Source: Candidatus Omnitrophota bacterium (GTDB lineage Bacteria; Omnitrophota; Gorgyraeia; Duberdicusellales; 4484-171). Taken from it: a stretch of DNA of 64,000 nt. Every line of letters begins with the position of its first letter. The first letter of the stretch is position 1. The notes under the pieces were generated by a model. That model was not told the DNA's origin, ran no database searches, and saw only the letters and a program-made list of their open reading frames with translations. The stretch covers positions 79,366 to 143,365 of the forward strand of contig PMCS01000008.1 in the NCBI GenBank assembly GCA_003154195.1. The letters run 5' to 3'. Of this stretch, positions 3,154-53,520 are shown piece after piece. Position numbers and translations under genes: made by a program.

Positions 3154-3169
3154 GCTTAAATTAAAAAAC

Positions 3170-3310
3170 GGTTAGGGCAATGGTAACGATGCCAGTATGG
3201 GTTATGGCTATGGTTAGGGCTGTAAATTTGTACCAGCCTTAACCCTTGCCTTTGCCCAAACCGGCCTCCTTACCTTAGCCTTAGCCTAATAAGTAACCTT
3301 AGCCTTACCC
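3170..3310. repeat. GGTTAGGG...CCCTAACC palindromic intergenic element, copy A
   Basis: Left arm ggttagggcaatggtaacg and right arm ccttaacccttgcctttgcccaaaccggcctccttaccttagcc. The core TTGCCTTTRCCCAAACCGGC is shared with the copies at 8945, 25551 and 63573. Confidence 0.7.
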
Positions 3311-3334
3311 AAAAAGAAATTTTATGCCCTTTAA

Positions 3335-6331: not shown

Positions 6332-6458
6332 CCGGAAAAATGCGGCAAACGCATTTTTCCGGTCCTGCCCTGCCTATCGGCAGGAAAAAATGCCGTTTAC
6401 CTTTCTTCTCCTATCCGCGAAGCGGATGATAATTATTTTTTGCTTCGCAAAAAATAAT
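6332..6458. repeat. cluster of four hairpin repeat modules
   Basis: ccggaaaaatgcggcaaacgcatttttccgg (6332-6362); cctgcctatcggcagg (6368-6383); atccgcgaagcggat (6413-6427); aattattttttgcttcgcaaaaaataat (6431-6458). Each module recurs elsewhere in the window. Confidence 0.8.
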
Positions 6459-8944: not shown

Positions 8945-9110
8945 CAATTCTTACCGGCACCCTGGCCATTGCCTTTACCCAAACCGGCTTTCCGCCTTCG
9001 CTAAAGTTAGCCTGATAGGCAAAACCTATCCATATTTGATGGCTGGCTTCGGCGAGACTTCTCCAAAGCTCGAAGAGCGAAGGAGAGCCTAACCCTGGCC
9101 CTAACCCATT
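8945..9110. repeat. GGTTAGGG/CCCTAACC-family element, copy B (inverted relative to copy D)
   Basis: ccctggccattgcctttacccaaaccggc matches the family core. ggcttcggcgagacttctccaaagctcgaagagcgaagg is the reverse complement of the module at 63593-63633. Ends gcctaaccctggccctaaccc and abuts the rpiB stop. Confidence 0.7.
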
Positions 9111-9636: not shown

Positions 9637-10734
9637 TCACAGCCATTCCTTCAATTCCACGATTGCTTCTTTTATAATATCAAATGCTTCTTCATAATGT
9701 TCCTGGCTCTTGCCGATAGGATCGGGAACGCCGATCACTCTTCCATCGGATAAAAATTTTCTCAACGGGAAAACCCTGCCTTCTGCCGTCGGTTCAAGCT
9801 TTAAAACGTAATCGGTATGCGCGTCTTCCATGGTAAAAATCAAATCCGAAGAAAGAATCAACTGCCGGTTAAGTTTTGTCGCGCGAAAACCCCTGATATC
9901 CATGCTTTCTTTTTCTTTTAAAAGACTGACGATGGAACTGGAAGCCGCGGAGCCTTCATAAGCATAAACGCCGGCGGAGATTATTTCATACCGATCTCTT
10001 AAATATGGCTTCGATTCGTCAATCTGCTTCTCCAGAATAAATTGGGCCATGGGAGAGCGACAAGTATTGCCCGTACAGATAAAAATAACCCGTTTTTTTA
10101 TAAAAACATCGACGATTTCTCTTTCCGATATCGTCCCTTCCCGCAAAATCTTGAAAGGATTACACGTTAAATCTACAACCGTAGATGCTTGCCGATAAAG
10201 GGACGGCCCGCTGTCGACAATTAAATCCACAAGGTTTCCTAAGCCGGATTCGACTTCCTGAGCGGATGCCGCCTCCGGCTTACCGCTTAAATTTGCCGAA
10301 GGCAAATAGACCGGCGCGTTTACCCCTTTTAAGATTTTATTGGTAACAATGTGCGCCGGAATACGTATGCCTAATTTTTCGTCTTTATCCGAATAATAAA
10401 TCATCGTCAGCGGCCCCGGCCAAAATTTTTCCATCAGCCGATAAGCAAAGGGGGGCATTACGGTAAAATAGTAATCCCTTGCCTTTTCCCAGCTATCGGA
10501 AACAATGGCAAAAGGTTTATCGGGCGGCCGGTTTTTTATCCGGGCAAGTCTCTGCACGGCATCTTTGTTCTCGGCATAAGCCGCCAAACCATAAACTGTT
10601 TCCGTAGGCAAAACAACAATCATCCCGTTTAAGATAGCATCCACCGCTTTACCGATAAGCGCAAAATCAATTTTCTGAGGATCAATAAATATTTTTTCCA
10701 TATTATTTTTTGCTGCGCAAAAAATAACCGCCAT
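9637..10734 (-). CDS. fusion of threonylcarbamoyl-AMP synthase (TsaC/YwlC) and low-molecular-weight protein phosphatase (YwlE-like)
   Basis: N-terminal YrdC/Sua5 domain (VVLPTETVYGLAAYA...WPGPLT) and C-terminal LMW-PTP P-loop FICTGNTCRSPMAQ with ...VPDPIG. The likely true start is the ATG at 10701, one nucleotide from a hairpin. Confidence 0.8.
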   Translation of the reverse strand: MAVIFCAAKNNMEKIFIDPQKIDFALIGKAVDAILNGMIVVLPTETVYGLAAYAENKDAVQRLARIKNRPPDKPFAIVSDSWEKARDYYFTVMPPFAYRLMEKFWPGPLTMIYYSDKDEKLGIRIPAHIVTNKILKGVNAPVYLPSANLSGKPEAASAQEVESGLGNLVDLIVDSGPSLYRQASTVVDLTCNPFKILREGTISEREIVDVFIKKRVIFICTGNTCRSPMAQFILEKQIDESKPYLRDRYEIISAGVYAYEGSAASSSIVSLLKEKESMDIRGFRATKLNRQLILSSDLIFTMEDAHTDYVLKLEPTAEGRVFPLRKFLSDGRVIGVPDPIGKSQEHYEEAFDIIKEAIVELKEWL

Positions 10735-10885: not shown

Positions 10886-11353
10886 TTATTTAAATTTAAG
10901 CTTCAACACTCTCAATACCGGGCAATACTTCTTATCTTTCAAAGCAAGAATCTCTACGGCGAGAATAATAGAATTCAAAAATGCCGGTTTGCCGATACCG
11001 GCGCAAGCTATGCCCAACCCTTTGGGGATACTGACCATGGAAAAAACGGCATCCAGGCCATCGAGCATACCGCCTTTTAACGCCACGCCGATAACCGGTA
11101 TATTTACATAAGAAGCGATGAACCCGGGAAGCGCCGCGGCCATGCCGGCGCAGGCAATTATCACACCAACCCCTTGTTTCTCCACATTCAAGCAATATTC
11201 CCGCAGTTTTTCCGGATGGCGATGCGCCGAAATAACCTGCAAGTCATATCCGATATTTAACTCATTCAACAAATCAAAGCCTTCTTTCAAAGTTTCCAAG
11301 TCGCTTTTACTGCCTGCCACAACCGCTATTTCTTTTTTCGGTATTTTCATCAT
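10886..11353 (-). CDS. purE: N5-carboxyaminoimidazole ribonucleotide mutase
   Basis: MMKIPKKEIAVVAGSKSDLET...GVGVIIACAGMAAALPG. A GGGAGG Shine-Dalgarno sequence lies 3-6 nt upstream of the tandem ATGs. The ORF-track start at 11455 is probably too long. Confidence 0.9.
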   Translation of the reverse strand: MMKIPKKEIAVVAGSKSDLETLKEGFDLLNELNIGYDLQVISAHRHPEKLREYCLNVEKQGVGVIIACAGMAAALPGFIASYVNIPVIGVALKGGMLDGLDAVFSMVSIPKGLGIACAGIGKPAFLNSIILAVEILALKDKKYCPVLRVLKLKFK

Positions 11354-11491
11354 TCGCCTCCCGAATATCGCAGATAAAAAGAATCCTTCAACTCGGCGAA
11401 GTCTCATTAATAAAAATTGAGCCCGCAAGCTTGCTTCGCCGCTACAACAGCGCAACCGCCTAACGGGCTCAACTATTCTACCTTACTGCCG

Positions 11492-12802
11492 TTAAGATTT
11501 CAACGCCTTATTTCCGATATCGTTGCGATAATGCAATCCGTGAAAAAAGATATTTTTAATCGCGCCGTAAACTTTATCCCGCGCGTCGCCGATAGTATCG
11601 CCTAACGCGCAAACATTTAAAACTCTTCCGCCGTTGGTTATGAATACCTTTCTTTCCTCTTCTGAATTTACCTTATCGGATTTTCTTCTCTGGTCCATTT
11701 TTGTGCCGGCATGAAAAATAAAGATATCTTTCATCTGACCAACAACACCAAGGCCGCCGATGACCTTACCCGTCTCATAATCACCGGGGTAACCGGCGGA
11801 AGCCAGAACAACGCTAAGACAAAACCGATTATCCCATTCAAGCTTTACGCCTTCCAGCTTACCATCAACCGCCCTAAGCATAACCTCGATTAAATCGCTT
11901 TTCAGCTTAGGTAAAATTGACTGGGCCTCGGGATCGCCAAAGCGGACATTGAACTCCAAAACATAAGGTTCATTATTTTTAACCATAATCCCTGCGTACA
12001 AGACCCCCCGATAGGGTTTTCCCTCCGCGGCTAAACCCTGGATGAGCGGCTTAAAAATTTTTTCGCTTATTTTAGCGGACAATTCCTGGTTAATCAGCGG
12101 CGCCGGCGAATAAGCGCCCATCCCGCCGGTATTCGGGCCTTTATCCCCATCAAAAATACACTTATGATCCTGAGAGCTTTCCAACAATACGATATTCTTG
12201 CCGTCGGTAATCGCCAGGATCGAAGCTTCCTGTCCATCCAGGTATTCTTCGATAACAACCCTGTCTCCGCTTGGACCAAATTCCTTTTTTACCATTATCA
12301 AATCTATGGCATCGGACGCTTCTTGAATAGTTTTAGCCACGACTACGCCCTTGCCCGCGGCTAAACCGTCGGCTTTAATGACAATGGGCACGCCTTTTTC
12401 TTTAATATATTTTTTCGCCGCCTGCGGTTCGTTAAAAACAGCAAAATCTGCCGTAGGAATTTTATATTTCCGCATTGTTTCCTTGGCAAAAACCTTGCTG
12501 CTTTCAAGCTTTGCCGACTCTTTATCGGGGCCGAATATTTTCAGGCCATGAGCAATAAACACATCGACAATACCATCAGCCAGTGGCGCTTCCGGGCCGA
12601 CTATCGTAAGGTCGATTGCTCTATCTTTTGCGAATTTCAAAAGCCCAGTAATATCATCAGAGTCAATGGCGATATTTTCGGCGGCTAAAGATGTCCCGCC
12701 GTTGCCCGGCGCGCAATAAATTTTTTCCACCAGCTTCGACTGGGCGATTTTCCAGCATAAACAATGTTCCCTTCCGCCTGAACCAATAACTAATATTTTC
12801 AT
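11492..12802 (-). CDS. purD: phosphoribosylamine--glycine ligase
   Basis: MKILVIGSGGREH...ATP-grasp...AGYPGDYETGKVI. Confidence 0.95.
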   Translation of the reverse strand: MKILVIGSGGREHCLCWKIAQSKLVEKIYCAPGNGGTSLAAENIAIDSDDITGLLKFAKDRAIDLTIVGPEAPLADGIVDVFIAHGLKIFGPDKESAKLESSKVFAKETMRKYKIPTADFAVFNEPQAAKKYIKEKGVPIVIKADGLAAGKGVVVAKTIQEASDAIDLIMVKKEFGPSGDRVVIEEYLDGQEASILAITDGKNIVLLESSQDHKCIFDGDKGPNTGGMGAYSPAPLINQELSAKISEKIFKPLIQGLAAEGKPYRGVLYAGIMVKNNEPYVLEFNVRFGDPEAQSILPKLKSDLIEVMLRAVDGKLEGVKLEWDNRFCLSVVLASAGYPGDYETGKVIGGLGVVGQMKDIFIFHAGTKMDQRRKSDKVNSEEERKVFITNGGRVLNVCALGDTIGDARDKVYGAIKNIFFHGLHYRNDIGNKALKS

Positions 12803-12973
12803 GTTTACCCCCTAGCGCGGTGAAACCGGCATCCGTATTTCTATTCCTTTCGGTTAATTGCCCTTTATACCTGTTGTGTTGTGTTTATTATTATACTCCA
12901 AAACAAATAGAATGTCAGCGGAAAATAATTATTTCGGCTTTACGCTAAATATAATGTTCAAGCCTGATATTTT

Positions 12974-14410
12974 TCAATGAAGATTACTCACGAAGCCGGT
13001 TAATTTTTTTTCCAACTCGCCAAGGCTGACGCCGAGCTTATCTTCCAAAACCCCGATGCGTTCATCAACACTTAAGATTCGCCGGTTTTCGTTATTCAAA
13101 GCGACCATGTATTTAAAAAACTGCGGCCGGAATTGCGGCTGCATCAAATAATAGAATAACGCCCAACTTTCCTTATAGGCGAGATTTTCTTCATCCCGGC
13201 CTAAATTATAAAATTTAGCGTTATCGGTATAGGAAAATAAATCCTTCAAAGCGATATATTTATTAGCGGTTATTGCCGTTTTAAAAATACTTAAATTTTC
13301 GCGGGAGAGAACGCCGATGGACGATGTCTGGCAAAACGTTGCCAAGCCTTCGATAAGCCAGGTATCAAAATTATTACCCGCCAACACTCCCAGCTCAAAG
13401 GATAGTTGATGCGCCGATTCGTGGCGTAAAACTTCGATATTGCTTCCCTTGGCGGAAAAAGTAATATTGTTCATATACCCCGACAACGACGCCTCGTAGC
13501 TTTCGATCTGGCGCAGGTTATGCTGGTAGGTTTCATAGTCAATATCGGCATATTTTTTGTTATCCTCTTTCATCTTCCTGATTCGTTCATTTTCCCGCAT
13601 TACATAATCACCGGCCTGTTTGTAATATGCTTCCTCAAAAAAGTTATACATCGCAAACAGGTTAGATCGGGGATTATAAAATCCCGAGGAACCGGCGAGA
13701 TAAGGCGCAACCCTTGCCGCGTAAGAGCGGTATTCGTCGGGCTTACCGAAAACAATAACGCAGGCATGCCGGGAAAGCCTCTGGTCGATGAGTGGGTTAA
13801 AAATCGCGTTGAATTCGCTATAAAGATTACCGAGCAACCCGATAGTTTTGGCGATCTTAAAATAATCCTGGTCGGTAAAAAAACTGTAGATTCCCTTGCG
13901 GTAAAACTTAAAATTCTTGAATTCTTTCCTGACCTTTATCTCGACAAGCGTAATCTCGGCATTTTCGCTACCAGCAGCCTCGGCCCATAGAATATCTTTC
14001 CGGGCGAGCCTGCGCACAATGTTCCCGGAATTGCCGAATACCTGCCTTACGTTAATATAGTCCGCGACAGCAGTTTGCGCGATGCCGGTAACTTTAGACC
14101 CATCCCTTAGATGAAAAACGGTTTCATCTAAGGGCGCGATTTCTCCTATCAGTTGTTTTTTTATCGCCAGGTCTTCCGCGCTTAGATTATCGTTGTCGCC
14201 CGGCCGCTTAAAGGCGGCGGCTGAATTCGTCTCGGCAATAATACCGTATCCCGGTTTATCTTTCAAAGTATGGTGCGCCGGCGCCATGTCTTTAATCCCC
14301 AGGGAAAATTTGGCTAAAAGCTGTCCCCGATAGAAGAAACGATCGGCAACGTCGAAGATAACGGCGGCGGCAACGAGAAATATAAGGATTTTTAAAAATC
14401 GGGGCATCAT
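12974..14410 (-). CDS. secreted/membrane-anchored protein with HExxH motif (DUF1570-like putative metallopeptidase)
   Basis: N-terminal signal/anchor MMPRFLKILIFLVAAAVIF and a single HESAHQL zinc-peptidase-like motif. The family call is by recall only. Confidence 0.4.
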   Translation of the reverse strand: MMPRFLKILIFLVAAAVIFDVADRFFYRGQLLAKFSLGIKDMAPAHHTLKDKPGYGIIAETNSAAAFKRPGDNDNLSAEDLAIKKQLIGEIAPLDETVFHLRDGSKVTGIAQTAVADYINVRQVFGNSGNIVRRLARKDILWAEAAGSENAEITLVEIKVRKEFKNFKFYRKGIYSFFTDQDYFKIAKTIGLLGNLYSEFNAIFNPLIDQRLSRHACVIVFGKPDEYRSYAARVAPYLAGSSGFYNPRSNLFAMYNFFEEAYYKQAGDYVMRENERIRKMKEDNKKYADIDYETYQHNLRQIESYEASLSGYMNNITFSAKGSNIEVLRHESAHQLSFELGVLAGNNFDTWLIEGLATFCQTSSIGVLSRENLSIFKTAITANKYIALKDLFSYTDNAKFYNLGRDEENLAYKESWALFYYLMQPQFRPQFFKYMVALNNENRRILSVDERIGVLEDKLGVSLGELEKKLTGFVSNLH

Positions 14411-14446
14411 AAGGGGAAGTTTGAAAACCGTAGGTTTTCATTTATC

Positions 14447-14509
14447 TAACTCCAGCAAGAGCCGCCATTTATATTATATTAATTATCGCTCCGGCTCTTG
14501 CTGGAGTTA
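14447..14509. terminator. 17-18 bp perfect inverted repeat with AT-rich loop
   Basis: taactccagcaagagccg ... cggctcttgctggagtta. The right arm overlaps the stop codon of the 14507..15469 gene. Confidence 0.5.
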
Positions 14510-15469
14510 GTTTTGCTTATCCGCCGGTTTTTTCTTGCGGCTTACCATAAAATAAATCAACCCCGCCACGACAAGTAAAATAACCGAAATAGATATATTG
14601 TTTTTATCAATTTTAAATCCCGCTTCAGGCGCAAGATTTTTCTTAGACGGCACTAATCTTACCGGCGCATTCGCCAGAGAAGCCGTTGCCGCCATATCCA
14701 GTATTTTTAAACGTAACTGCCGGTCTTCGCTCTTAGGATAAGTGAATGTAAGGTTAACGCCAAAACTGCCGGCCGTAGGAAAGAACAAATAGCGGTGAAT
14801 AATACTGCCGGACGACGAGATGTCGTAGACGCAAAGATAGCTGTCGAAACCGGCAATCGTTTCCTTGTCTTTTCTTACAAAACTGAGATTGTAGCCGAAG
14901 GGGTCGGCTTTTGGCTGCTTAAAAATATCAACAAACTCATCCTTTTTTTTCTTAGCATAAGCCTGGACATCCAAATAAACAATATGATTTTTTTTCGCGG
15001 GCGGCGGCCGGTAGCTTACGGTATAATCCGTCTCAAAAGCCGGGGGAACTTCTAAATTAAACTCCGGGGCTATCTCGATAGAAAAACCATAGCGACTGTT
15101 GCGCACAAGATATGAGTCTTTTATTTTTTTCTCGCCGGCGACGGACTCGCCGGAATAACTCTCGCCCGATGCGCCGGCGGCAGGCGCATTGATTTTTAAA
15201 ATCCCCGGCTCGTCGGCTTCGATGGTAGCGATCTCTGATTTTAATATCTTCGTTTCGCCCTTGCCGACGCCGACGGCAAACTCCAGCCACACCGCTTCGT
15301 CATCTTCTTTTACAATCCGGCCGTCAAACGAATTGCCGTTTTTTAAATTAACCGTTTCCGCTCGCGCCATCGGCAATAAGGCTAACGATAAAATAATTAA
15401 AAGATATTTTAATATTAATTTTTTACCAATATCTATTTGTTTTCGCATATCAGAAATCAATAAACGCAA
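14507..15469 (-). CDS. hypothetical secreted protein with C-terminal membrane anchor
   Basis: 320 aa. N-terminal signal LLIILSLALLPMARA and C-terminal helix ISVILLVVAGLIYFMVS followed by RKKK. No recognisable domain. It sits inside the pur cluster. Confidence 0.5.
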   Translation of the reverse strand: MRLLISDMRKQIDIGKKLILKYLLIILSLALLPMARAETVNLKNGNSFDGRIVKEDDEAVWLEFAVGVGKGETKILKSEIATIEADEPGILKINAPAAGASGESYSGESVAGEKKIKDSYLVRNSRYGFSIEIAPEFNLEVPPAFETDYTVSYRPPPAKKNHIVYLDVQAYAKKKKDEFVDIFKQPKADPFGYNLSFVRKDKETIAGFDSYLCVYDISSSGSIIHRYLFFPTAGSFGVNLTFTYPKSEDRQLRLKILDMAATASLANAPVRLVPSKKNLAPEAGFKIDKNNISISVILLVVAGLIYFMVSRKKKPADKQN

Positions 15470-15481
15470 TCACTCCTCCCC

Positions 15482-16495
15482 CTACACCATGACCATCTTT
15501 TCTCTCGCTTTAACTATCTCTCCGATAATATACGAATGAAAATTCTTATTTTTGCCCAGAAAATATAAAACCCTGGCCGCATGGTGCTTATCCAATACCA
15601 GAATCATCCCTATCCCCATGTTGAAAACCGTGCACATCTCGCGTTCGGGGATGCCGCCATTTTCCTGGATTATCTTAAAGATCCTCGGAACCGGCCAACT
15701 TTTCTTACGCAGCACCATCCCGCAACCGTCGGGGATGATTTTAGTAGCCTTGCTGTAAAACGCGCCGCCGGTGATATGGGCGATACCTTTAACCGGCGCG
15801 GCGCGCGAAGAAGAAAAAACCGAGAGTAAAGACAACACCGGTTTTACGTAAATACGGGTCGGAGCCAATAAATCTTTAGCGTATTTTTTTATATTTTTTT
15901 CACCTAAGGCCTTGCGCGCCAGGGAGAAACCGTTGGAATGTAAACCGCTCGAGCTAAGGCCGATCACAATATCGCCGGCTTTAATATCGCGGCCGTCAAC
16001 CATCTTTGTTCGGTCAACGACACCCACGCAAAAACCGGCCAAATCATATTCATCCGGTTTATACATCCCCGGCATTTCCGCGGTTTCCCCTCCTACTAAA
16101 TGGCAATCGGATTCCTGCATCCCCTGATGGATACCGGAAACAATATCTTTTAAAACTTTCGGCTTAACCTTGCCGCAGGCGATATAGTCTAAAAAAAATA
16201 ACGGCCTAGCGCCGAGGCAGATAACATCGTTAACGTTCATCCCCACCAGATCAATGCCTACGGTATTATGAATATCGCAATCGATGGCAATTCTTAGTTT
16301 GGTCCCCACCCCATCGGTCGAAGAAACTAAAACCGGGTCCTTACACCCCGATAAATACGGCGATAAGGCAAACGGCGAACCAAACGCCCGGGCGCTGGTC
16401 GGCATATTAGTCGAAACGAAATTCTTTATCCCCGCGACGAATTCATCGGCCTTCTTGATATCCACGCCGGATTTTTTATAAGTCAGTTTTTTCAT
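15482..16495 (-). CDS. purM: phosphoribosylformylglycinamidine cyclo-ligase (AIR synthetase)
   Basis: VGIDLVGMNVNDVICLGARPLFFLDYIACGK... typical of PurM. Confidence 0.95.
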   Translation of the reverse strand: MKKLTYKKSGVDIKKADEFVAGIKNFVSTNMPTSARAFGSPFALSPYLSGCKDPVLVSSTDGVGTKLRIAIDCDIHNTVGIDLVGMNVNDVICLGARPLFFLDYIACGKVKPKVLKDIVSGIHQGMQESDCHLVGGETAEMPGMYKPDEYDLAGFCVGVVDRTKMVDGRDIKAGDIVIGLSSSGLHSNGFSLARKALGEKNIKKYAKDLLAPTRIYVKPVLSLLSVFSSSRAAPVKGIAHITGGAFYSKATKIIPDGCGMVLRKKSWPVPRIFKIIQENGGIPEREMCTVFNMGIGMILVLDKHHAARVLYFLGKNKNFHSYIIGEIVKAREKMVMV

Positions 16496-16725
16496 ATTTT
16501 TTTACTCCGTAAAAAAATAACCTTCTGTAGAAAATATCTTTGGAAAATTATCTACATTAGCTACATGGCCTACATGTATGCATTGAATTGCCTTGCGAAC
16601 TTTGCCAGCCTCGCCTAGCCCGCCTTGCCGAACAAGTCGAGGCAGGCTCGGCTAGGCGGGCGCCTTTACGGGAAAAGGTTTTAGTTATTTTTTCTTAACT
16701 GCAAGATGTTGATTTTCACTATGTT

Positions 16726-18111
16726 CTATTGTTCACATACATCTTTAGTCACGTTGGAGCACTTGACCGGATACTTGCCCGACCAGCACGCCGTGCAATA
16801 ATAATCGGCCTTATGTTTAAAGCACTTAAACATTCCCTCCAAACTCAAATACCCCAGGCTGTCGACTTCCAGGTACTTCTCCATTTCCTGGAGCGAATAG
16901 TTGTTGGCCAGTAATTTTTTCGGGTCGGGAAAATCAATCCCGTAGAAACAGCCGAATTTATGCGGCGGGCAAGAAACGCGCATGTGCACTTCCTTGGCGC
17001 CGAGCGCCCGGAAACTTTTAACCCTGGACTGAGAAGTCGTGCCGCGCACGATGGAATCATCGACAATCACAATCCGTTTGCCCTTGATTACTTCTTTCAA
17101 AATATTAAATTTCAGCTTAACGCCCAGCTCTCTTTTTTCCTGAAACGGCTGGATGAATGTCCGGCCGATGTAGTGGTTGCGGATAATCCCCAGTTCTAAA
17201 GGTATGCCGGATTCCTTGGCAAAGCCCAGGGCGGCGCTGGTGCCGGAATCGGGAACTCCCACAACATAATCCGCTTTAACCGGGTATTCGCGCGCCAGCC
17301 GCGCGCCCAGTTTTTCCCTGACCAAATGTACCGTTTCGCCGAAAATCACCGAATCCGGCCGGGAAAAATACACATGTTCGAAAGCGCAAAATGAAAACCG
17401 GCGCTGTTGCGCGGCATACCGGCGGCTGGAAACGCCTTTTTTATCGATTACCACCATTTCTCCCGGCTCGACCTCGGCCAATAATTGCGCGCCGGTTAAA
17501 TCGAGCGCGCATGATTCCGAAGCGACGAAATAAGTATCGCCGCTTTTACCGATACAAAGCGGCCGGAAACCTCCGGGGTCCCTGGCCGCGATAATCGCGT
17601 CTTTAGTCATCAGCAAAAGGGAAAACGCGCCGCGCAGATGTTTCATCCCATCGATAATCTTGTTCTCCAGGGAAACTGCTTTGGAACGCGCGATTAAATG
17701 CATAATCAACTCTGAATCGCAAGTCGTATGAAAAATAGCGCCCTTATCCTCCAGGCGCGCGCGCAGTTCTTCGGTATTAGTCAAATTACCGTTATGCGCC
17801 AACGCCAGAGGGTAACGATGCGATTCGACAAAAAGCGGCTGGATATTTTTAAAAGCGCTGGAACCGGTGGTCGAATAACGGACATGGCCGATTGCCTGGT
17901 GGCCTTTAAGTTTTTTTAACGAATCTTCGTTGAATACGTCGTCGACCAGCCCCATCCCCTTGTGGGAGTTGAAAACCGTGCCGTCATAAGAAATAATACC
18001 GCAGGACTCTTCGCCCCGGTGCTGGAGGGAAAAAAGCCCCAGAAAAGTCAGCGCGCTCGCCTCGTTGCTGTTGTATACTCCAAATAACCCGCAGTGATCT
18101 TTTATCGCCAT
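16726..18111 (-). CDS. purF: amidophosphoribosyltransferase
   Basis: MAIKDHCGLFGVYNS... Ntn glutaminase Cys, a PRTase domain and a C-terminal Cys cluster. Confidence 0.95.
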   Translation of the reverse strand: MAIKDHCGLFGVYNSNEASALTFLGLFSLQHRGEESCGIISYDGTVFNSHKGMGLVDDVFNEDSLKKLKGHQAIGHVRYSTTGSSAFKNIQPLFVESHRYPLALAHNGNLTNTEELRARLEDKGAIFHTTCDSELIMHLIARSKAVSLENKIIDGMKHLRGAFSLLLMTKDAIIAARDPGGFRPLCIGKSGDTYFVASESCALDLTGAQLLAEVEPGEMVVIDKKGVSSRRYAAQQRRFSFCAFEHVYFSRPDSVIFGETVHLVREKLGARLAREYPVKADYVVGVPDSGTSAALGFAKESGIPLELGIIRNHYIGRTFIQPFQEKRELGVKLKFNILKEVIKGKRIVIVDDSIVRGTTSQSRVKSFRALGAKEVHMRVSCPPHKFGCFYGIDFPDPKKLLANNYSLQEMEKYLEVDSLGYLSLEGMFKCFKHKADYYCTACWSGKYPVKCSNVTKDVCEQ

Positions 18112-18120
18112 AGTTTTTTA

Positions 18121-18454
18121 TTCCTTTTATTCGCTGTTCCAGCGAATTTCTATAAAACAATTTTGCGCCTCCGGCGGTGCCCTGCGGGCGGCGGTGTTAT
18201 AAAGCGGCTTGCCTTTGTGCTTTCCGCTCATAAGACAATTTTTTAACGGTAAAAGGCTGCGGTAATTTAGGCGGTTGCGTAACTCGCCCCGCCTCGGATA
18301 GCTCGGCGGGGCTCAAACACCCGCAACCGTCCCGGCTTCGCTTCGGGATTTCCTGAATTCCCTCAGCCTTTTACCTAAAATTGTCAAATCGCGGAAACCG
18401 CAAAGCCAATCCGTTTATAGGTTAAAAATAAAAAAAACAAATTGTGGATAGCGA
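18121..18454 (-). promoter_or_regulatory. 334-nt highly structured purQ-purF intercistronic/leader region
   Basis: Multiple hairpins: attcgctg/cagcgaat, gcggttgcg...cgcaaccg enclosing gccccgcc...ggcggggc, and cccggcttcgcttcggg. Also a 27-bp GC motif gcctccggcggtgccctgcgggcggcg (18166-18192) that recurs at 51384-51410. No riboswitch consensus was recognised. Confidence 0.4.
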
Positions 18455-19318
18455 TTATTTTTTACGAAGTAAAAAATAATTGACGGCGTTTTGAAAAATA
18501 CGTAATCCCCAGGGAACAGTTTTTTTCTTATGCCAATCGGGAATCTGGTGCTCGAACATACAGCGTTCCGGATGAGGCATCAGCCCTAAGATTCTTCCCG
18601 TCGCGTCGGTGATACCGGCAATGTTACGCAGGGAACCATTAGGGTTGACCGTTTCACTTTCTTCGATTCCACCAACATCATCACAATACCTGAAAGCGAT
18701 CCGGCCGGCGGCCTCAAGCTCCTTGACTATTTTTTGAGGCGCAAGAAACTTTCCTTCGCCGTGAGCAATCGGCAACCGTATCACTTCCGGTAAGCCCTTC
18801 GTCCATATCTTTTCCGGTTTTGTTTCTTTCTTTTCGTCCCTCGTCCTTCGTCCCCGCCATCCTGCGGATGGCGAGGTCTCGCCAATTTGTTTTACAAATT
18901 GGCGGACTTCTTCCTTCGTTTTAAGGTATATCCATCTATCAACAAACCGGCCGCAGTCATTAAAGCTGAGAGTGACTTTCTGCCGGAAATCCGCGTCGGG
19001 CAAGATTCCGGTTTTAACCATTACCTGAAAACCGTTACAAATACCCAGTACCAGTCCACCCTTGCCGATAAAAGCCTTTAATTCATCCTTGAGCCACAAA
19101 AGCAGTTCTAAAGAAAAAATTTTCCCCGCGCCGAGGTCATCGCCGTAGCTGAAGCCCCCGGGAAAACAAATAATCTGGTAGCGCGATAGGCTCTTTGCTT
19201 CTTTAACATAATTGATATGCCGCAAAGAAGCTTCGGCTCCGGCCAGCTCAAAGGCCAAAGTCGTTTCCTTATCGCAGTTAATCCCCGCCGTACGTAATAT
19301 TAATGCTTTAGGTTTCAT
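18455..19318 (-). CDS. purQ: phosphoribosylformylglycinamidine synthase I (glutaminase subunit PurQ) carrying an in-frame repeat-element insertion
   Basis: MKPKALILRTAGINCDKET...GICNGFQV...PIAHGEG...MPHPER. It carries about 28 extra residues (ETSPSAGWRGRRTRDEKKETKPEKI) relative to canonical PurQ. The ORF-track start at 19366 is a TTG; the ATG at 19318 is preferred. Confidence 0.85.
   Translation of the reverse strand: MKPKALILRTAGINCDKETTLAFELAGAEASLRHINYVKEAKSLSRYQIICFPGGFSYGDDLGAGKIFSLELLLWLKDELKAFIGKGGLVLGICNGFQVMVKTGILPDADFRQKVTLSFNDCGRFVDRWIYLKTKEEVRQFVKQIGETSPSAGWRGRRTRDEKKETKPEKIWTKGLPEVIRLPIAHGEGKFLAPQKIVKELEAAGRIAFRYCDDVGGIEESETVNPNGSLRNIAGITDATGRILGLMPHPERCMFEHQIPDWHKKKTVPWGLRIFQNAVNYFLLRKK
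18836..18905. repeat. three-hairpin repeat cluster inserted in-frame in purQ
   Basis: ccatcctgcggatgg (18858-18872), ggcgaggtctcgcc (18870-18883; same motif at 35918-35931) and ccaatttgttttacaaattgg (18882-18902). Confidence 0.7.
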
Positions 19319-19366
19319 AAAAATAAAATCGAGATAAAAACAAAACCATAAAGCTTCTACCACCAA

Positions 19367-19599
19367 GACACCAAGACACCAAAAAAATTAAAAACTATAG
19401 ATTTTTTCGTGAATTTGTGTCTTGGTGGCAAAAACATTTTTGTTTTTATTTTAAAACCTAAACCTTACCACAGAGGCACCAAAAAAAGACTCAAAACCTT
19501 AAAACTCTATCACTAAGGCACTAAGAAAACCAAAAATTATATTTTTTCTTAGTGTACTTGGTGCCTTGGTGGTAAATTTTTAGGTTTTATTCAGATACT
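19367..19599. repeat. purL-purQ intercistronic region with three long imperfect hairpins
   Basis: accaccaagacac...gtgtcttggtggt; taccacagaggcaccaa...ttggtgccttggtggta enclosing cactaagaaaa...ttttcttagtg. Confidence 0.6.
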
Positions 19600-22491
19600 T
19601 CACTGGAATTCTTTAAAAGTACCTGTCCAGGCCTTACGCAGTTTCGCAAGGCTTTCGTTTACCACCGGCTTACTGTTTTTGTTGTAAATCATTAAATCCG
19701 GTTTATCATCCACGCAGCCGATTAAACCAAAAGGCAGGCCTTTTAACGTTTTTTCAAAATCCTTTTTGTCTCGCTTTACCACTTCAACGATAAAACGCGT
19801 AGGCGATTCGCTGAATAAGACTTCATAATCCAGAAGCTTTCCGGACACAGGAGCTTCGGCTAAAAATACATTGGCGCCCAGGCCTGACCCCATGCACATT
19901 TCAGCAAGCGCTACGGCCATGCCGCCCTCGGATAAATCATGGCAGGAAGCAACCAGGCCTTTTTTGGCGGCCCGGCTTAATCCGGTAAAAATATCGTAAG
20001 CATCAGCCTTATCTACTTTAGGCACGATACCGCCGGTAATTCCGGCGTTACGAAAATATTGCGACGCGCCGAGTTCCGGCTTAGTTTTACCGACTAAATA
20101 AATCAGGTTGCCCCTTTGGGTAAAGTTATTGCCGGAAACTTCCTGCCAATCGTCAATCACCGAAATCGCCGAGATCAATAATGTCCCCGGTATGGCGATA
20201 TCCTTTCCCTCTACGGAATACTCATTATAAAGGCTGTCTTTCCCGGAAATAAAAGGAATTTTAAAATAAGTAGAAAAATCGTAGCAGCCCTTAGAAGCGC
20301 GCACCAAGCCGGCTAAAGTTTCAGGATCCTGCGGCGAACCCCAGCAGAAATTATCCAGAATATAGGTCCGGCGTAAATCCGCGCCGCAGCTTATCAGGTT
20401 GCGCAGCGCCTCATCGATTGCCAGGGCCGCAGTCCAATAAGGGTCGATATCAGAATAAAAAGGGTTTATCCCCATCCCGATGACTACCGCCTTGCGGCTT
20501 TTCAAATCAGGCCTTACCACTGCGGCGTCGCTTACCCCAAGCCGGCCGCCGGTTTCGGCCATCGATTTTAAAACCGAACCGGCCTGGACTTCATGGTCGT
20601 ATTGGCGTAAAATCCAATCTTTCGGGCTGATGTTGGGCGACGCCAGCAAAGCGAGTAAATCTTTATTATAGGACTTTTTATCGCCAACTTTTGTGTCTTC
20701 TTCTTTTTTAATCTGCCAGGCCGCTTTTTTAGCCAGCTTGGGCAGATTAAAAATAAAATCCATGTCGAGCTCTGCTACTTTATTGCCGGAGTAAAAAAGC
20801 CTCAATCTATGATCGCCGGTCACCTTGCCCACTACCGTCATCTCCACGTCTTCTTCGTCAAAGATTTCTTTTAAGGCCGTGATATTTTCTTCCTTAGTGG
20901 TAAATACCATGCGCTCCTGCGATTCGGATATCCAGATCTCCGTATAGGAAAGGCCGCGGTATTTTAACGGCACCTTATCGAGCTCAACTTCAACCCCATG
21001 CTCGGAGGCGATTTCAGTAATGGCGCTGGAAATACCGCCGGCGCCGCAATCGGTAATCGCGTTGAATAAATTCTTATCGCGGCTGCACAACAGCGCTTCG
21101 GTGAGTTTCTTCTCTTCGATGGCATTACCGATTTGCACGGCGCTGTTTAAGGCAACGGTCTGCTCGTCGAGCTCCCGCGAAGAAAAAGTCGCGCCGTGTA
21201 TCCCGTCGCGGCCGGTCTTTGCTCCGCATAAAACCACAACGTCGTCAATATCGACTTTCTTGAACGATTTATTTTTAGGGAGAATGCCCAGCGTACCGCA
21301 ATAAACCAGAGGGTTGCCCAGAAAGCGCCGGTCAAAAAGCACGGCGCCGGCGACCGTCGGGATGCCCATGCGATTTCCGTAATCACGCACGCCGCCAATC
21401 ACTCCTTTAATAATACGTTTAGGATGCAACAACCCCTTAGGAAGGTCATCGTAGCTGATATCCCAGGGAGCAAAACAAAAAACATCGGTATTGGCAAACG
21501 GCTTAGCGCCGCAGCCGGTGCCTAAAATATCCCTGATCACGCCGCCGATGCCGGTAGACGCACCGCCATAAGGCTCCAGGCTGGAGGGATGGTTGTGCGT
21601 TTCAACCTTAAAGCAAATATTATTTTTCGCGTCAAAATCGACGATACCGGAATTATCGTGGAATACGGAAACACACCCTTTGTGGCTAATCTCGTTGGTC
21701 GCCTGCATCACCGTAGATTTCAGCAGGCCGTTAATCGTCTCTTTTTTAACCACGGCGCCGGATTCGTCCCGCTCTTCGTATTCGATAATCCCCCGGAAAG
21801 TTTTATGACAGCAATGTTCCGACCATAGAGTGGCAATCGTCTCTAATTCGCAATCCGTAGGGTTATTTTGCCGGGCGGTAAAATAACCCTTAATAATCCT
21901 CATCTCTTCTAAGCTGAGCGAAAGACAGCCCTGTTTAGAAATTTCCATTAAACGATTGTCATCAGCCGAAAGAATATCAACGCTGCGTAGCTCAAAGCAA
22001 TAATCTTTGCCGGCGAACTCGCTCAAGGTAGATAAATTTTTAACTTTATTATAATCGAGCACATGTTCAATAAGCGGATTATACAAAACCCTGGGGGCCA
22101 GCTTTTCGATATCCCTGACGGATAAACCGTCAAACTTATACCAGCGGGCGGTACGCGCGGTGGCAACCGGCACGTTTAAATCCTTGATCGCTTTTTCTAA
22201 AGACAGCGCCACGGGATCGCACACCCCGGGATTATGGGTGACCAGAATCTCATTGATTTGAGGGGGCGCCGCAAAAAAACCTCGGGCAAGAATATAATTT
22301 TCAGTAACCGGATCGATGAGAAGCCGGATAACGATTTCTTCGATTTTGTTTTCGGGCAGATTCGATTCGATAAAATAAACCGTACGGCAAGAAGCCTCAA
22401 AGATTTTGCCGATGCCTGAATCTTTTATCTGGTTAATCAGTCCGGTATGCCGGCTTTCTTTTTTGGGGATGATATCTACGCGGTGAACCAT
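19600..22491 (-). CDS. purL: phosphoribosylformylglycinamidine synthase II (PurL) with N-terminal PurS-like domain
   Basis: 963 aa. The core carries typical PurL motifs (HNHPSSLEPYGGASTGIGGVIRD...). It is about 220 aa longer than stand-alone PurL, and the first 80 aa have a PurS-like pattern (...IDPVTENYIL). Confidence 0.85.
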   Translation of the reverse strand: MVHRVDIIPKKESRHTGLINQIKDSGIGKIFEASCRTVYFIESNLPENKIEEIVIRLLIDPVTENYILARGFFAAPPQINEILVTHNPGVCDPVALSLEKAIKDLNVPVATARTARWYKFDGLSVRDIEKLAPRVLYNPLIEHVLDYNKVKNLSTLSEFAGKDYCFELRSVDILSADDNRLMEISKQGCLSLSLEEMRIIKGYFTARQNNPTDCELETIATLWSEHCCHKTFRGIIEYEERDESGAVVKKETINGLLKSTVMQATNEISHKGCVSVFHDNSGIVDFDAKNNICFKVETHNHPSSLEPYGGASTGIGGVIRDILGTGCGAKPFANTDVFCFAPWDISYDDLPKGLLHPKRIIKGVIGGVRDYGNRMGIPTVAGAVLFDRRFLGNPLVYCGTLGILPKNKSFKKVDIDDVVVLCGAKTGRDGIHGATFSSRELDEQTVALNSAVQIGNAIEEKKLTEALLCSRDKNLFNAITDCGAGGISSAITEIASEHGVEVELDKVPLKYRGLSYTEIWISESQERMVFTTKEENITALKEIFDEEDVEMTVVGKVTGDHRLRLFYSGNKVAELDMDFIFNLPKLAKKAAWQIKKEEDTKVGDKKSYNKDLLALLASPNISPKDWILRQYDHEVQAGSVLKSMAETGGRLGVSDAAVVRPDLKSRKAVVIGMGINPFYSDIDPYWTAALAIDEALRNLISCGADLRRTYILDNFCWGSPQDPETLAGLVRASKGCYDFSTYFKIPFISGKDSLYNEYSVEGKDIAIPGTLLISAISVIDDWQEVSGNNFTQRGNLIYLVGKTKPELGASQYFRNAGITGGIVPKVDKADAYDIFTGLSRAAKKGLVASCHDLSEGGMAVALAEMCMGSGLGANVFLAEAPVSGKLLDYEVLFSESPTRFIVEVVKRDKKDFEKTLKGLPFGLIGCVDDKPDLMIYNKNSKPVVNESLAKLRKAWTGTFKEFQ

Positions 22492-22580
22492 ATTTTAGAC
22501 CTTGGATAATACGATTGCGCAGGAAACTATTTTAATAACTGTGAGGATATTTGAAAAGGGGAAAAGGTGTCTGTCCCCTT

Positions 22581-23888
22581 TTAAATTCCCGTCCTTTTAT
22601 AAATTTTATCGACATTGATTAGATAAGTATGGGGGTCAAAGATTTCTTCGATTTCTTTCGGCATCAAATATTTTTTAATACGGTTGTCGCGCGATACTTC
22701 CTTCTGGAAATTAGAATTGCCGTTAATCACTTTCAGAGAAATATCCTGGACGATCTCGTAAGCGTCCATGCGCGAAAGCCCCCGGCTCATCAGCTTAAGC
22801 AGGATTTTCTGCGAGTAAATCAGGCCGCGGTTGAGTTCGATGTTACGCATCATATTCTGGGGATTGACTTTGAGGTTTTCCACCACTTCAATCATTTTTT
22901 TAAGCATGTACGCGATTGCTGCGGTAGAATCCGGCAGGATCACCCTTTCCGATGATGAATGCGAGATGTCGCGTTCGTGCCAGAGATTGATATTCTCAAA
23001 CGCTACCTGGGAATTAGCCCGCAGCAGGCGGCTCAACCCGCAGATTCTTTCGCAAATCACCGGGTTCTGTTTGTGCGGCATCGCACTCGAACCCTTCTGT
23101 CCGGCATAAAAAGGCTCTTTTACTTCATCGACTTCGGTGCGATGGAGATGCCTTACTTCAGTGGCGAAACGTTCCAGGGTCGCCCCCAGTAAAGCCAGTA
23201 AAGAAAGATAATAGGCAAAACGTTCTCTCGATACTACCTGGGTTGAAACTAAAGTATGGTTTATACCCAATTTTCGGCAAATATATTCTTCGACTTTCGG
23301 TTCATGATAGGCGAATGTCCCCACGGCGCCGGAAATCTTGCCGCAAGCGACATACTTTAAACTATCCCGGAGCAGGCGCTGCTCTTCAATCAAATCGTTA
23401 TAAAAATAAAGGAATTTAAGGCCAAAGCTGTAGATCTCGGCGTGCACGCCGTGAGTGCGGGCGATGCAAAGCATATCCTTGTGCTTAATCGCCCTATCCT
23501 TAACCTCTTTTATTAAAATACCGAGCTGTGATAGGATAATTTCTGTGGCATCCCGGAGCTGCCAGGCAAGCGTCGTATCGAGAAGATCGGAAGAAGTCAT
23601 CCCCATGTGCAAATATTTAGCCGCCCGCCCTAATTGCGGGGAAATATGTTGCAGAAAAGCGACAATATCATGCTGGGTCTGCTCTTCGATTTTTTTAATC
23701 GCGGGAACAGATATTTTAACGCCGGCAAACGATTTGCTTATACCGGGGGGTATTTTCTTATATGTTTCCAAGGCCCGGCAAAGCAGCTTTTCAATCTCCA
23801 GGAACCGGCGGAATTTTTCTTCCTCGTCCCATATTTTAGCGATTTCCGGCGGATTATAACGTTCAATCATAATTTTATGAAACACCAA
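22581..23888 (-). CDS. purB: adenylosuccinate lyase
   Basis: MIERYNPPEIAKIWDEEEKF... and fumarate-lyase signature GSSAMPHKQNP. The likely start is the internal MIERY. Confidence 0.95.
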   Translation of the reverse strand: MVFHKIMIERYNPPEIAKIWDEEEKFRRFLEIEKLLCRALETYKKIPPGISKSFAGVKISVPAIKKIEEQTQHDIVAFLQHISPQLGRAAKYLHMGMTSSDLLDTTLAWQLRDATEIILSQLGILIKEVKDRAIKHKDMLCIARTHGVHAEIYSFGLKFLYFYNDLIEEQRLLRDSLKYVACGKISGAVGTFAYHEPKVEEYICRKLGINHTLVSTQVVSRERFAYYLSLLALLGATLERFATEVRHLHRTEVDEVKEPFYAGQKGSSAMPHKQNPVICERICGLSRLLRANSQVAFENINLWHERDISHSSSERVILPDSTAAIAYMLKKMIEVVENLKVNPQNMMRNIELNRGLIYSQKILLKLMSRGLSRMDAYEIVQDISLKVINGNSNFQKEVSRDNRIKKYLMPKEIEEIFDPHTYLINVDKIYKRTGI

Positions 23889-24902: not shown

Positions 24903-25538
24903 CTATTTTTCGCGCCGCGAAAAATAGCCCGCGATAAGCATTTTAACATTATCGCCGATACGCGAAAATTCCTTATCGGCAAATAAATCTTTGTTAAAAA
25001 CGCTCCCGCCGAAGGCGGCCGCGTCGGCGCCGTTTTTAAAAAACTCGGCGATGTTGGCGGCGTTCACGCCGCCGCAAGCAAGCAGTTTTATATGCTCAAA
25101 GGGAGCCTTTATTTCCTTAAAATAAGCTGGGCCAAAAAAGCCGGCGGGAAAAACCTTTACCATTGCCGCCCCCGCCTGCCAGGCGCAATATATTTCCTGC
25201 GGGGTAAGCGCGCCCGGGAAAAAAGCGATTTTTTCCCTTCGGCAAAAAATCGCTACTTCTTTTACCAAAACCGGAGAAACAATAAATGAAGCCCCGGCAT
25301 TGATCGCCGCCTTTAAAGAACTTTCGTCGAGGACTGTTCCCGCGCCGACCGACAACCTGCCCCTGGCCGCCTTAATTGTCCTTTTGATAACCGCCGCGGC
25401 ATGGGGGGTATTCAAAGTAATCTCAATTGCTCTCAGGCCGACAGCCGCTACCGCTTCCACCAGCGGCTCGATATCTTCTTCCTTAACCCCACGTAAAATG
25501 CCCAAAATAGGAAGCTTTTCAAATTCTTTGATGTCCAT
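24903..25538 (-). CDS. eda: KDPG / KHG aldolase (Eda)
   Basis: LPILGILRG...IEITLNTP...GAGTVLD...FPG; Eda fold. The palindrome ctatttttcgcgccgcgaaaaatag overlaps the stop. Confidence 0.85.
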   Translation of the reverse strand: MDIKEFEKLPILGILRGVKEEDIEPLVEAVAAVGLRAIEITLNTPHAAAVIKRTIKAARGRLSVGAGTVLDESSLKAAINAGASFIVSPVLVKEVAIFCRREKIAFFPGALTPQEIYCAWQAGAAMVKVFPAGFFGPAYFKEIKAPFEHIKLLACGGVNAANIAEFFKNGADAAAFGGSVFNKDLFADKEFSRIGDNVKMLIAGYFSRREK

Positions 25539-25550
25539 AATTAAAAACTA

Positions 25551-25722
25551 GGTTAGGGTAAGGGTAAGGGTAAGGGTTAAGGGTTAAGGGTTAAGGGTTA
25601 AGGTTTAATAATCTTTTTTTTAAAAGCCTTTACCTTAACCCTAACCCAAACCCAAGCCGGCCTCGTAACCCTGACCTTAACCCGGTATTTATCATACCGG
25701 CTTCCTCACCCTAGCCTTGGCC
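25551..25722. repeat. GGTTAGGG/CCCTAACC-family element, copy C, with telomere-like G-tract minisatellite
   Basis: ggttaggg (gtaaggg)x3 (gttaaggg)x4 ... ccttaaccctaacccaaacccaagccggcctcgtaaccctgaccttaaccc...caccctagcc. There are seven GGG tracts spaced 3-4 nt apart. Confidence 0.75.
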
Positions 25723-26673
25723 CTATTCTTCTTCTACGTCGATAAAGCTCTCGTAAAACTCGCGGTAATCCTCTTTCTTATCGGACTCGCGAAGAGCGAT
25801 TGCTTCTTTAGGATGGGTGTTAAACATCCCGGCAATCGCGTAAGGGATGATATAACCCCATTCAATCTTATCCCGTAAAGGAATAAACTCCTTAGAGATC
25901 AAATCAAGTACCGGCCGGATATCGAATTTGGGATTTTTTAAAAATCCCAGCAAAAGTTCCAGGGGACAGTTTCCCGCGGCACGGCCGATACCGTAAACCG
26001 TAGCATCCAGATAATTGGCGTTATGAATAATCGCTTCGATTGTATTAGCAAAAGCAAGCTGCTGGTTATTATGTCCGTGAAAACCTACTTCCTTGGTTTT
26101 TAAAATACTCTTTACTTTTTTAATCAAAAACTCCGTAGTTTCCTGATAGAGAAAACCAAAGCTATCCACCACATAAATTACGTCGGCCTTGCTTTCTCTT
26201 TCCAACTGGTCTAAGGCTTCGTTAAGTTCATTATCCAATGCCTTGGTGATCGCCATGATATTCACGGTAGTCTCATAGCCTTTGTCATGAAATTCATTAA
26301 CCAACCTTATCGCTTTATCAATATCTTTAACATAGCTGGCAACCCGGATCATGCTCACCGGGCTCTCTTTTTTAGGCTTAACGTCAGCCGGGTCGACCCT
26401 TCCGATATCGGCCATCACGGAAATTTTTGTCTTGGAAGGGATGCCTTCGATAACGCGATTGATGATATCATCCTCGCAGAATTTCCACGGCCCGTATTCG
26501 GAAGCGGAAAAAAGTTTTTTGGAATTACGGTAGCCGATTTCCATATAATCCACGCCGGCGGCGGAAAGCGCGCTGTAAACCGCGCGGACAAATTCGAAGC
26601 TGAAATCGTGGTCGTTGATCAGGCCGCCATCCCGGACCGTACAGTCAAAAACTTTTATTTTTTCTCTAAACAT
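25723..26673 (-). CDS. HMGL-like / DRE-TIM metallolyase family aldolase
   Basis: DCTVRDGG, DSFG and HGHNNQQLAFANT motifs of the pyruvate carboxyltransferase/HMGL-like fold. Specific substrate unknown. Confidence 0.55.
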   Translation of the reverse strand: MFREKIKVFDCTVRDGGLINDHDFSFEFVRAVYSALSAAGVDYMEIGYRNSKKLFSASEYGPWKFCEDDIINRVIEGIPSKTKISVMADIGRVDPADVKPKKESPVSMIRVASYVKDIDKAIRLVNEFHDKGYETTVNIMAITKALDNELNEALDQLERESKADVIYVVDSFGFLYQETTEFLIKKVKSILKTKEVGFHGHNNQQLAFANTIEAIIHNANYLDATVYGIGRAAGNCPLELLLGFLKNPKFDIRPVLDLISKEFIPLRDKIEWGYIIPYAIAGMFNTHPKEAIALRESDKKEDYREFYESFIDVEEE

Positions 26674-29728: not shown

Positions 29729-29776
29729 ATTTTTTTGCTTCGCAAAAAAATATCCTTCCATCCGCTTCACGGATGG
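29728..29776. repeat. AT hairpin plus CCATCCGC-TTCA-CGGATGG hairpin pair
   Basis: tatttttttgcttcgcaaaaaaata followed by ccatccgcttcacggatgg, in the recJ 5' region. Confidence 0.8.
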
Positions 29777-32546: not shown

Positions 32547-32577
32547 TATTTATTTTTTGCGCAGCAAAAAATAAATA
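32547..32577. repeat. AT hairpin module
   Basis: ttatttattttttgcgcagcaaaaaataaataa, between the MFS stop and the yqeY start. Confidence 0.75.
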
Positions 32578-39766: not shown

Positions 39767-39826
39767 TTATTTTTTTGCTCCGCAAAAAAATAACCGGATA
39801 AATTTTTTGCAAAGCAAAAAATTTAT
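39767..39826. repeat. two tandem AT hairpin modules
   Basis: ttatttttttgctccgcaaaaaaataa and ataaattttttgcaaagcaaaaaatttat, between the macA stop and the macB start. Confidence 0.75.
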
Positions 39827-43298: not shown

Positions 43299-43658
43299 TT
43301 ACATTCTTTCTGCCGTACCTCTCAGCAAAACCAATATCGCCGAATGCGGAGCAACAACATATTTTTTGTTTTCGAATTTTATCTCAACGCCCTGATCCCG
43401 CAAAAAAATACAATAATCACCAGGCCGCGCCTGTAAAGGAAAATACCTGTCCCGCGCTTTAGTCGCCCAGGGCTCCTGGTCCAAAAGGCTGGGGTCGGGC
43501 ACAGGGTACCCCGGGCCGGTCTTCACGATTTTACCCGACTGCACCCGATCTTTATCTTTTACTCCCTGAGGAAGATAAAGCCCGCTGTCGGTCTTACCTT
43601 CACCCTCATCAAGCTCAATCAGCACCTTGTCGCCTACGATTATAAGTTCTTTGTCCAT
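43299..43658 (-). CDS. GroES/Cpn10-like protein with insertion
   Basis: IIVGDKVLIELDEGEGKTDSGLYLP...GDYCIF...KYVVAPHSAILVLL has a GroES-like pattern but with a 15-20 aa insert. No groEL adjacent. Confidence 0.4.
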   Translation of the reverse strand: MDKELIIVGDKVLIELDEGEGKTDSGLYLPQGVKDKDRVQSGKIVKTGPGYPVPDPSLLDQEPWATKARDRYFPLQARPGDYCIFLRDQGVEIKFENKKYVVAPHSAILVLLRGTAERM

Positions 43659-53516: not shown

Positions 53517-53520
53517 AATA

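Follow-up and report, generated by a model that had tools for sequence, protein, structure and literature searches.

The G-tract array between an HMGL-like aldolase gene and eda is, in our verdict, an ordinary, fixed microsatellite inside a repeat family of the MITE/ERIC-like type. The region is probably one copy of a dispersed, non-coding palindromic family, with an array that arose by homogenisation and a G-quadruplex (G4) motif that is incidental. The window, by which we mean the whole 64-kb stretch of DNA analysed, comes from an Omnitrophota host. It holds four copies of the family (A to D), and more than 30 other loci were found in metagenomes. The sequence-only reading had already placed the array in a palindromic intergenic family with three further copies. 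Both points were borne out by nhmmer and CM searches, and its 16-bp tandem repeat in copy D was confirmed by TRF. The features used below are as follows.

3154 to 3334, no strand assigned: copy A, the 181-bp NUDIX to recG spacer; canonical; nhmmer 95.4 bits, CM 109 bits
8945 to 9100, no strand assigned: copy B, in the rpiB to glyA spacer; partial, right-arm core only
24903 to 25538, minus strand: eda (KDPG/KHG aldolase), downstream cistron; Pfam PF01081, 7.7e-41
25539 to 25722, no strand assigned: copy C, the entire 184-bp spacer from the HMGL-like gene stop to the eda start
25539 to 25550, minus strand: TAGTTTTTAATT, U/T-run after the hairpin base on the mRNA strand, directly before the eda ATG
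25551 to 25608, plus strand: left arm of copy C, GGTTAGGG(TAAGGG)3(TTAAGGG)3TTAAGG, homogenised tandem array
25556 to 25597, plus strand (template strand of the flanking genes): canonical G-quadruplex motif by regex, G4Hunter maximum 1.52
25609 to 25626, no strand assigned: apical loop of copy C, A/T-rich, TAATAATCTTTTTTTTAAAAG, from the folds
25627 to 25722, plus strand: right arm of copy C, C-rich, from the sequence and the alignment to L103
25651 to 25664: family core in the right arm of copy C, CCCAAGCCGGCCTC
25682 to 25700: small hairpin in the right arm of copy C, CCGGTATTTATCATACCGG
25696 to 25716: second, partial core in the right arm of copy C, ACCGGCTTCCTCACCCTAGCC
Right arm of copy C: one duplicated hexamer, CCCAAA/CCCAAG
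25723 to 26673, minus strand: HMGL-like aldolase, upstream cistron; Pfam PF00682
63559 to 63849, no strand assigned: copy D, upstream of a CAAX-protease gene
63633 to 63741, plus strand: 16-bp tandem array of copy D, 6.8 copies, TRF score 190

Copy C was detected with 59.8 bits (E 1.5e-16) by nhmmer and with 59 bits by CM R1. Its TTAAAAAC end is also present in copy A and at the metagenome loci L074, L075, L096 and L099. Nearly all genes of the window are encoded on the minus strand. Homologues about 80% identical to the HMGL-like protein carry the name Candidatus Omnitrophota, and the exact eda protein was found in 23 contigs, NCBI MAG GCA_003154645.1 among them. Some public records of HMGL-like aldolase homologues (P0052, P0091, P0109) say 'nucleoid-structuring protein H-NS'. 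Given the Pfam HMGL-like match, this suggests a propagated mis-annotation. The purine-biosynthesis series purE, purD, purM, purF, purQ, purL, purB (10886-23888) lies on the minus strand throughout. GC skew is below zero across the whole window, indicating a strong strand bias.

The family consists of non-coding imperfect palindromes of about 115-190 bp. Copies A, B, C and D have the core CCCAA[AG]CCGGCYTC in common, and the arms of the window copies are made of degenerate GGY-NNN hexamers on the left, as in copy A, and NNN-RCC hexamers on the right. Over the whole family the conserved core is GGTAAGGATGCCNGT ... ACCGGCTTCCTAACC, flanked by arms of degenerate GGN-NNN hexamers, and the consensus reads GGTTAGGG-TNAGGG-TAAGGATGCCNGTTT ... 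loop ... CCTAACCCAAACCGGCTTCCTAACCCTAACC. A degenerate core pattern of 26 nt retrieved 33 metagenome loci. These loci have the left arm in common although it was not part of the query. Matches of nhmmer and CM to family copies had E values of 1e-11 to 1e-30. The mean fold z-score of the family was -3.9. The basal stem is kept, the T.T and N.C mismatches are fixed, and two pairs covary, in a count that excludes CM alignment A4, where both strands of each palindrome mix. Element sites lie mostly between co-directional genes, and elements of the window's lineage end at most 30 nt from a start codon.

Copies B and D are mosaics. In copy D, a 41-bp module (63596-63634) and the 16-bp tandem array come before the family hairpin (63739-63837), and copy B carries at 9045-9087 a module homologous to the 41-bp unit in inverse orientation. 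The loci L072, L073, L077, L078, L090 and L101 form a subfamily in which conservation extends beyond the element, into AGAAAATAGCAACTCC on its left side and GTAACCCGTAATGATTTTCATGGTTCGAGGGTG on its right side. Read on the bottom strand, GTAACCCGTAATGATTTTCATGGTTCGAGGGTG would contain a mini-ORF, MKIITGYG-stop. Two family copies about 0.4-1.2 kb apart were seen on L081 (9418-9543, 10436-10556), L088 (4523-4652, about 5038-5088) and L101 (252-421, 1465-1583). Four metagenome contigs (L008, L123, L124, L132) begin or end within copies C, B or A; thus the family breaks short-read metagenome assemblies.

Several other identities of the element were considered. The GGY-NNN periodicity could be read as Gly-X codons. 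This was rejected on the basis of in-frame TAA, TAG and TGA: each frame is interrupted by stops in 23 or more of 25 copies, leaving at most two in which any one frame is open, and the flanking genes use all three stops. As no frame is open, the codon-like periodicity is not coding. An integron attC site was rejected as well, since the order GTTAGGG ... CCCTAAC is opposite to 5'-RYYYAAC ... GTTRRRY-3' and the flanks are housekeeping genes. A looser core pattern was tried and abandoned. Of its 61 contig matches, 60 fell by chance in coding sequence (FAQTG ends of signal peptides), which left L025 as the single real element. Rfam gave no match at the gathering threshold or at E-value thresholds, only sub-threshold hairpins resembling miRNA precursors. 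No true family match was obtained in phage, plasmid and IMG/VR collections, and none by blastn against 5,426 complete E. coli genomes. The searchable literature on the core, the termini and Omnitrophota repeats held nothing relevant, the nearest being the unrelated E. coli TMECO motif.

Other palindromes were observed in the window. A short one, TTTTTT[GA]CG[GAC]AG[CT]AAAAAA, gave 14 matches at about 11 sites, compared with 0.26 expected. Its sites include 6436-6454, 10706-10724, 16498-16516, 18458-18476, 29731-29749, 32553-32571, 39771-39789, 39803-39821, 61197-61215 and 61964-61982. Many of the sites directly precede a start codon, with GGAG in the loop, or lie where a gene ends; the motif may present an SD in a hairpin or form a small repeat family. 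At 53518-53565 a near-perfect palindrome, ATAATTTTAAAGGCCGGTAAAAACTTCCCGGCCTTTAAAATTAT, is followed by T-runs and is probably an intrinsic terminator that works in both directions; each of its strands matches miRNA-precursor models.

Comparison with related genomes revealed that copy C is an insertion. The gap between the HMGL stop and the eda start is 184 nt here, and 0, 1, 1 and 24 nt in four relatives from Omnitrophota whose HMGL is 81-84% identical. About 64 kb of DNA of these relatives did not contain a family copy. Because the two genes abut in the four relatives, the 184-bp element is an insertion at a translationally coupled junction. Further properties are those of a MITE: a length of 115-190 bp without coding capacity, terminal inverted repeats (GGTTAGGG... 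/ ...CCCTA[AG]CC), filled and empty sites, and dispersed copies with unrelated flanks (four in the window, the others elsewhere). CTA at 25548-50 and 25723-25 flanks copy C and is a possible 3-bp target duplication, a single case; among the other copies no consistent target-site duplication was found. Mobility thus rests on one filled/empty comparison and on dispersal, as neither a consistent duplication nor, among the 45 ORFs of the window, an autonomous partner was found. At L102 (about 1700-1890) an element is located between 17-bp direct repeats, GGGCTCCCGGACTGGGC, which may reflect a long target duplication, or another repeat into which the element inserted. In the closest relative, the 24-nt HMGL/eda spacer GGGAAGTAACCAGAGGCCGGAAGG (L105, 3127-3150) includes GAGGCCGG, reminiscent of the family core. 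It may be what is left of an element that was excised or decayed, or a chance match.

The left arm of copy C had been described as an expansion. Its closest relative is the element in L103, with a loop and right arm about 95% identical; no metagenome locus orthologous to the window was found, and L103 can therefore be called neither an orthologue nor a paralogue of copy C. The two elements share the small hairpin CCGGTATTTAT[CT]ATACCGG. The left arm of L103 is the usual degenerate GGTTAGGGTAATGGTAAAGAAGCCCGTATGGGTAAAGGCAATGGTTAAGG of 49 nt, that of copy C 52 nt of TAAGGG/TTAAGGG units, and the right arm of copy C is longer than that of L103 by the one duplicated hexamer. The left core GA[TA]GCCNGT is invariant in all 25 other aligned copies, and in copy C it is replaced by the tandem units. 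Spacer lengths are also close, with 181 bp for copy A and 184 bp for copy C. With arms of 52 and 49 nt and an overwritten left core, the arm was homogenised and not expanded.

The array does constitute a formal G4 motif, as had been proposed. It has seven G3 tracts with TAA or TTAA loops, where the definition asks for four or more G3 tracts, loops of 1-7 nt and a G4Hunter score of 1.2 or higher. Some details needed correction. The TTAAGGG unit is present three times in full and not four times, the last unit being only TTAAGG. The complementary CCTTAACCCTAACCC (25633-25647) lies about 25-35 nt past the array, not about 50 nt away. The plus strand is the template for the minus-strand genes and not, as stated, the non-template strand. 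That the G-run is absent from the mRNA nevertheless holds; the mRNA carries the C-rich complement. In TRF the array had a period of 7, 8.9 copies and a score of 81, and together with the 16-bp array of copy D it has the top two tandem-repeat scores of the window. The only second canonical G3N1-7 motif of the window is at 43491-43515, and mononucleotide shuffles yielded 0.54 motifs per window.

We compared the structures open to the array. In isolation it has no Watson-Crick self-structure (0 kcal/mol). The full plus strand as ssDNA was predicted to fold with -39.7 kcal/mol (z -4.6), with the array wholly paired to the C-rich arm, and the minus-strand RNA of copy C with -79.5 kcal/mol (z -4.2). 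Repeats of G3 tracts with 3-nt loops are established G4 formers as isolated oligonucleotides, and from this knowledge an oligonucleotide of the isolated array could well form a G4. Within the element, a hairpin or duplex should out-compete the G4, given that the array belongs to the template strand and has a complementary C-rich arm opposite it. A G4 motif was found in one of 35 family copies, so it is not conserved among homologous elements. Thus, the motif looks like an incidental by-product and not like a regulatory or phase-variable device.

The reading had further suggested slipped-strand variation, and this is supported for the family and not for copy C. At the consensus level, spacer and array of copy C had the same 184-bp length in nine independent assemblies; the sequence was identical in eight, and one had two loop substitutions. 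The uniform copy number across strains that the reading had named as speaking against it was seen here in the consensus assemblies. Copy A had a constant length in seven assemblies; six had the identical sequence and the seventh differed by a single base. The copy B spacer was identical in all six assemblies. Assemblies for copies A and B were retrieved through recG and glyA. In copy D, the 16-bp unit was present 4, 5 or 6 times in other assemblies (comparison of L110-L116), and the 41-bp unit CTTCGGCAAGATTTCTCCGAAGCTCGAAGAGCGAAGGAGAA, single in the window, was repeated two to three times in tandem in other assemblies of the population. At least five copy D alleles were observed among assemblies, next to an identical protein. 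Copy D is a true VNTR. A family member from another organism had seven or six GCTAAG units between identical flanks and four in a third sample (L083/L097/L100). Slippage is therefore a family trait, yet copy C is fixed. Phase-variable spacing or structure, proposed for copy C, found no support. A hexamer scan found no promoter-like hexamers in the 184-bp spacer, and the tract, which has a stop codon on one side and a start codon on the other, is neither in an ORF nor between promoter hexamers. A difference in copy number, as expected of a phase-variable SSR, was seen at copy D and not among the nine consensus assemblies of copy C.

Our preferred reading of these observations is as follows. In the Omnitrophota lineage of the window, a non-autonomous palindromic repeat that inserts in A/T-rich gene junctions would have placed a copy exactly at the stop/start junction of the HMGL-like gene and eda. 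The element is presumably co-transcribed with the two genes, and on the mRNA strand it would form a long, imperfect hairpin with a U5 run at its end. The internal periodicity of the arms would facilitate replication slippage or an unequal exchange of adjacent hexamers. Such events may have homogenised the copy C left arm to (TAAGGG)3(TTAAGGG)3-4, overwriting the left core. The same slippage in copy D would lead to arrays that are still variable between strains.

We compared the family with known systems. ERIC/IRU elements of Enterobacteriaceae (imperfect palindromes of about 127 bp) resemble it in size and long-hairpin fold, in their place within transcribed intergenic spacers in either orientation, in having longer variants from internal insertions and in lacking a known transposase. 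In contrast to ERIC/IRU, the family has no E. coli sequence match, occurs in other phyla, has hexamer-periodic G-rich/C-rich arms and is prone to tandem expansion. Correia-type MITEs of Neisseria are likewise short, non-coding and dispersed with inverted-repeat termini and filled versus empty sites; they lie beside gene starts and can add hairpins or terminators. Unlike Correia elements, the family has no consistent TA-type duplication, no IHF site and no cognate IS identified, and the element as a whole forms one hairpin, with no unique core enclosed by two TIRs. REP/BIME elements with RAYT are also intergenic palindromes mosaicked with short modules, with proposed roles in termination and mRNA stability. 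REPs are 20-40 bp long with a GTAG or CGTC head (PMC3733652). The family elements are at least 115 bp long, start with GGTTAGGG, do not have this head, and are not accompanied by a RAYT in the 64-kb window. E. coli boxC/TMECO is dispersed and intergenic, has many G3 tracts (GGGTTAGGGTGAGGG) and the potential for non-B DNA, and has been described as a source of instability (PMC4666352). This 34-37-nt triplex motif is unrelated to the family in sequence and architecture. Telomeric (TTAGGG)n and SSR contingency loci have, like copy C, G3 tracts 3-4 nt apart or a slippable short unit. In contrast to these, copy C lies in an internal bacterial spacer outside ORF and promoter, with seven tracts opposite a complementary arm, and unlike SSR contingency loci it showed no length variation in nine assemblies.

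That the array is a functional G4, a phase-variable SSR or both, modulating the flanking aldolase genes, is most improbable. The formal motif with seven G3 tracts, 3-4-nt loops and a G4Hunter score of 1.52 speaks for it, as do the absence of competing Watson-Crick structure in the array alone and the copy-number changes in related arrays. These are outweighed by an array that is identical in nine assemblies, sits between stop and start codon away from promoter-like hexamers and replaces a conserved left core, not being an expansion. It belongs to the template strand, which in the transcription bubble remains base-paired with the nascent RNA, and the C-rich partner arm about 25 nt off gives the predicted -39.7 kcal/mol hairpin. 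Moreover, 34 of the 35 family copies do not have the motif, and relatives have the same gene pair without any spacer. A binding site for a DNA or ssDNA-binding protein, with the T.T and N.C mismatches as part of the core, would make the elements REP/BIME-like. Candidate binders are a RAYT/Y1-type transposase, a recombinase or a nucleoid protein. We consider this very unlikely: invariant cores on both arms, conserved mismatches, mosaic modules in either orientation (copies B and D) and dispersed intergenic locations are compatible with such a site, but the elements are 3-5 times longer than REPs and lack the GTAG/CGTC head, and no transposase or RAYT was found among the 45 ORFs of the window, nor was a candidate protein identified.

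Another explanation is that the family is a selected cis-acting RNA hairpin that uncouples adjacent cistrons. It would act as a leaky intrinsic terminator, block 3' exonucleases or be processed by an RNase, and would have spread because of this function. On the gene strand of all four window copies, T5-6 follows the long hairpin, and the next start codon comes directly after. The conserved core and basal stem with its two covarying pairs, the sites between co-directional genes and the better RNA fold of the bottom than the top strand in 21 of 25 copies point in the same direction. However, orientation to flanking genes outside the window is mixed (about 11 antisense, 6 sense, 2 convergent, 2 divergent), and a simple terminator scan (compact G+C-rich stem, 3-8-nt loop, U-tract) called none of the elements. 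Apical stems pair poorly in many copies, though indels make the underlying gap-free count of arm-against-arm pairs uninformative, and copy C is fixed in the population without the conserved left core. As an explanation of the family, such a function is rather unlikely. It is not exclusive of the dispersed MITE/ERIC-like repeat that we prefer, as a mobile element can be exapted. For the host, a role as leaky terminator or mRNA stabiliser is possible; the mixed orientation and the missing terminator call argue against it, and the strand-biased RNA folding hints at it. Core conservation over hosts assigned to four phyla, strand-biased folding and start-codon proximity hint at a selected function and not a purely selfish element.

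With the family seen as a dispersed MITE/ERIC-like repeat, its distribution is of note. Bacterial MITE/REP-type repeats are normally confined to a genus or family. Here the core is near-identical in hosts assigned to four phyla. Besides the Omnitrophota of the window, ClpB of L085 is 84-87% identical to Patescibacteria/Moranbacteria proteins, an acyl-CoA dehydrogenase of L079 is 97-99% identical to proteins of Thermodesulfobacteriota/Desulfobacterales MAGs, and L025 is a 284-kb contig with the title uncultured Bacteroidales. The habitats are anoxic peat, sediment and groundwater. The family appears to be undescribed and unusually widely distributed. Tentatively, it may be a new family, either a non-autonomous element that crosses phyla or a structured nucleic-acid motif with a shared function. 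Movement across phyla could conceivably occur via physical contacts of ultra-small host-dependent bacteria.

The flagged G-tract itself is of little importance, being a fixed and probably neutral microsatellite. It calls for caution, in that G4 motifs within palindromic repeats can be by-products of periodic arms. VNTR loci of the family are possible strain markers in Omnitrophota populations. Of more interest is the spread of the family over phyla. Should this distribution hold up, the family could be used to trace horizontal DNA flow between uncultivated anaerobes, or would constitute a new structured motif.
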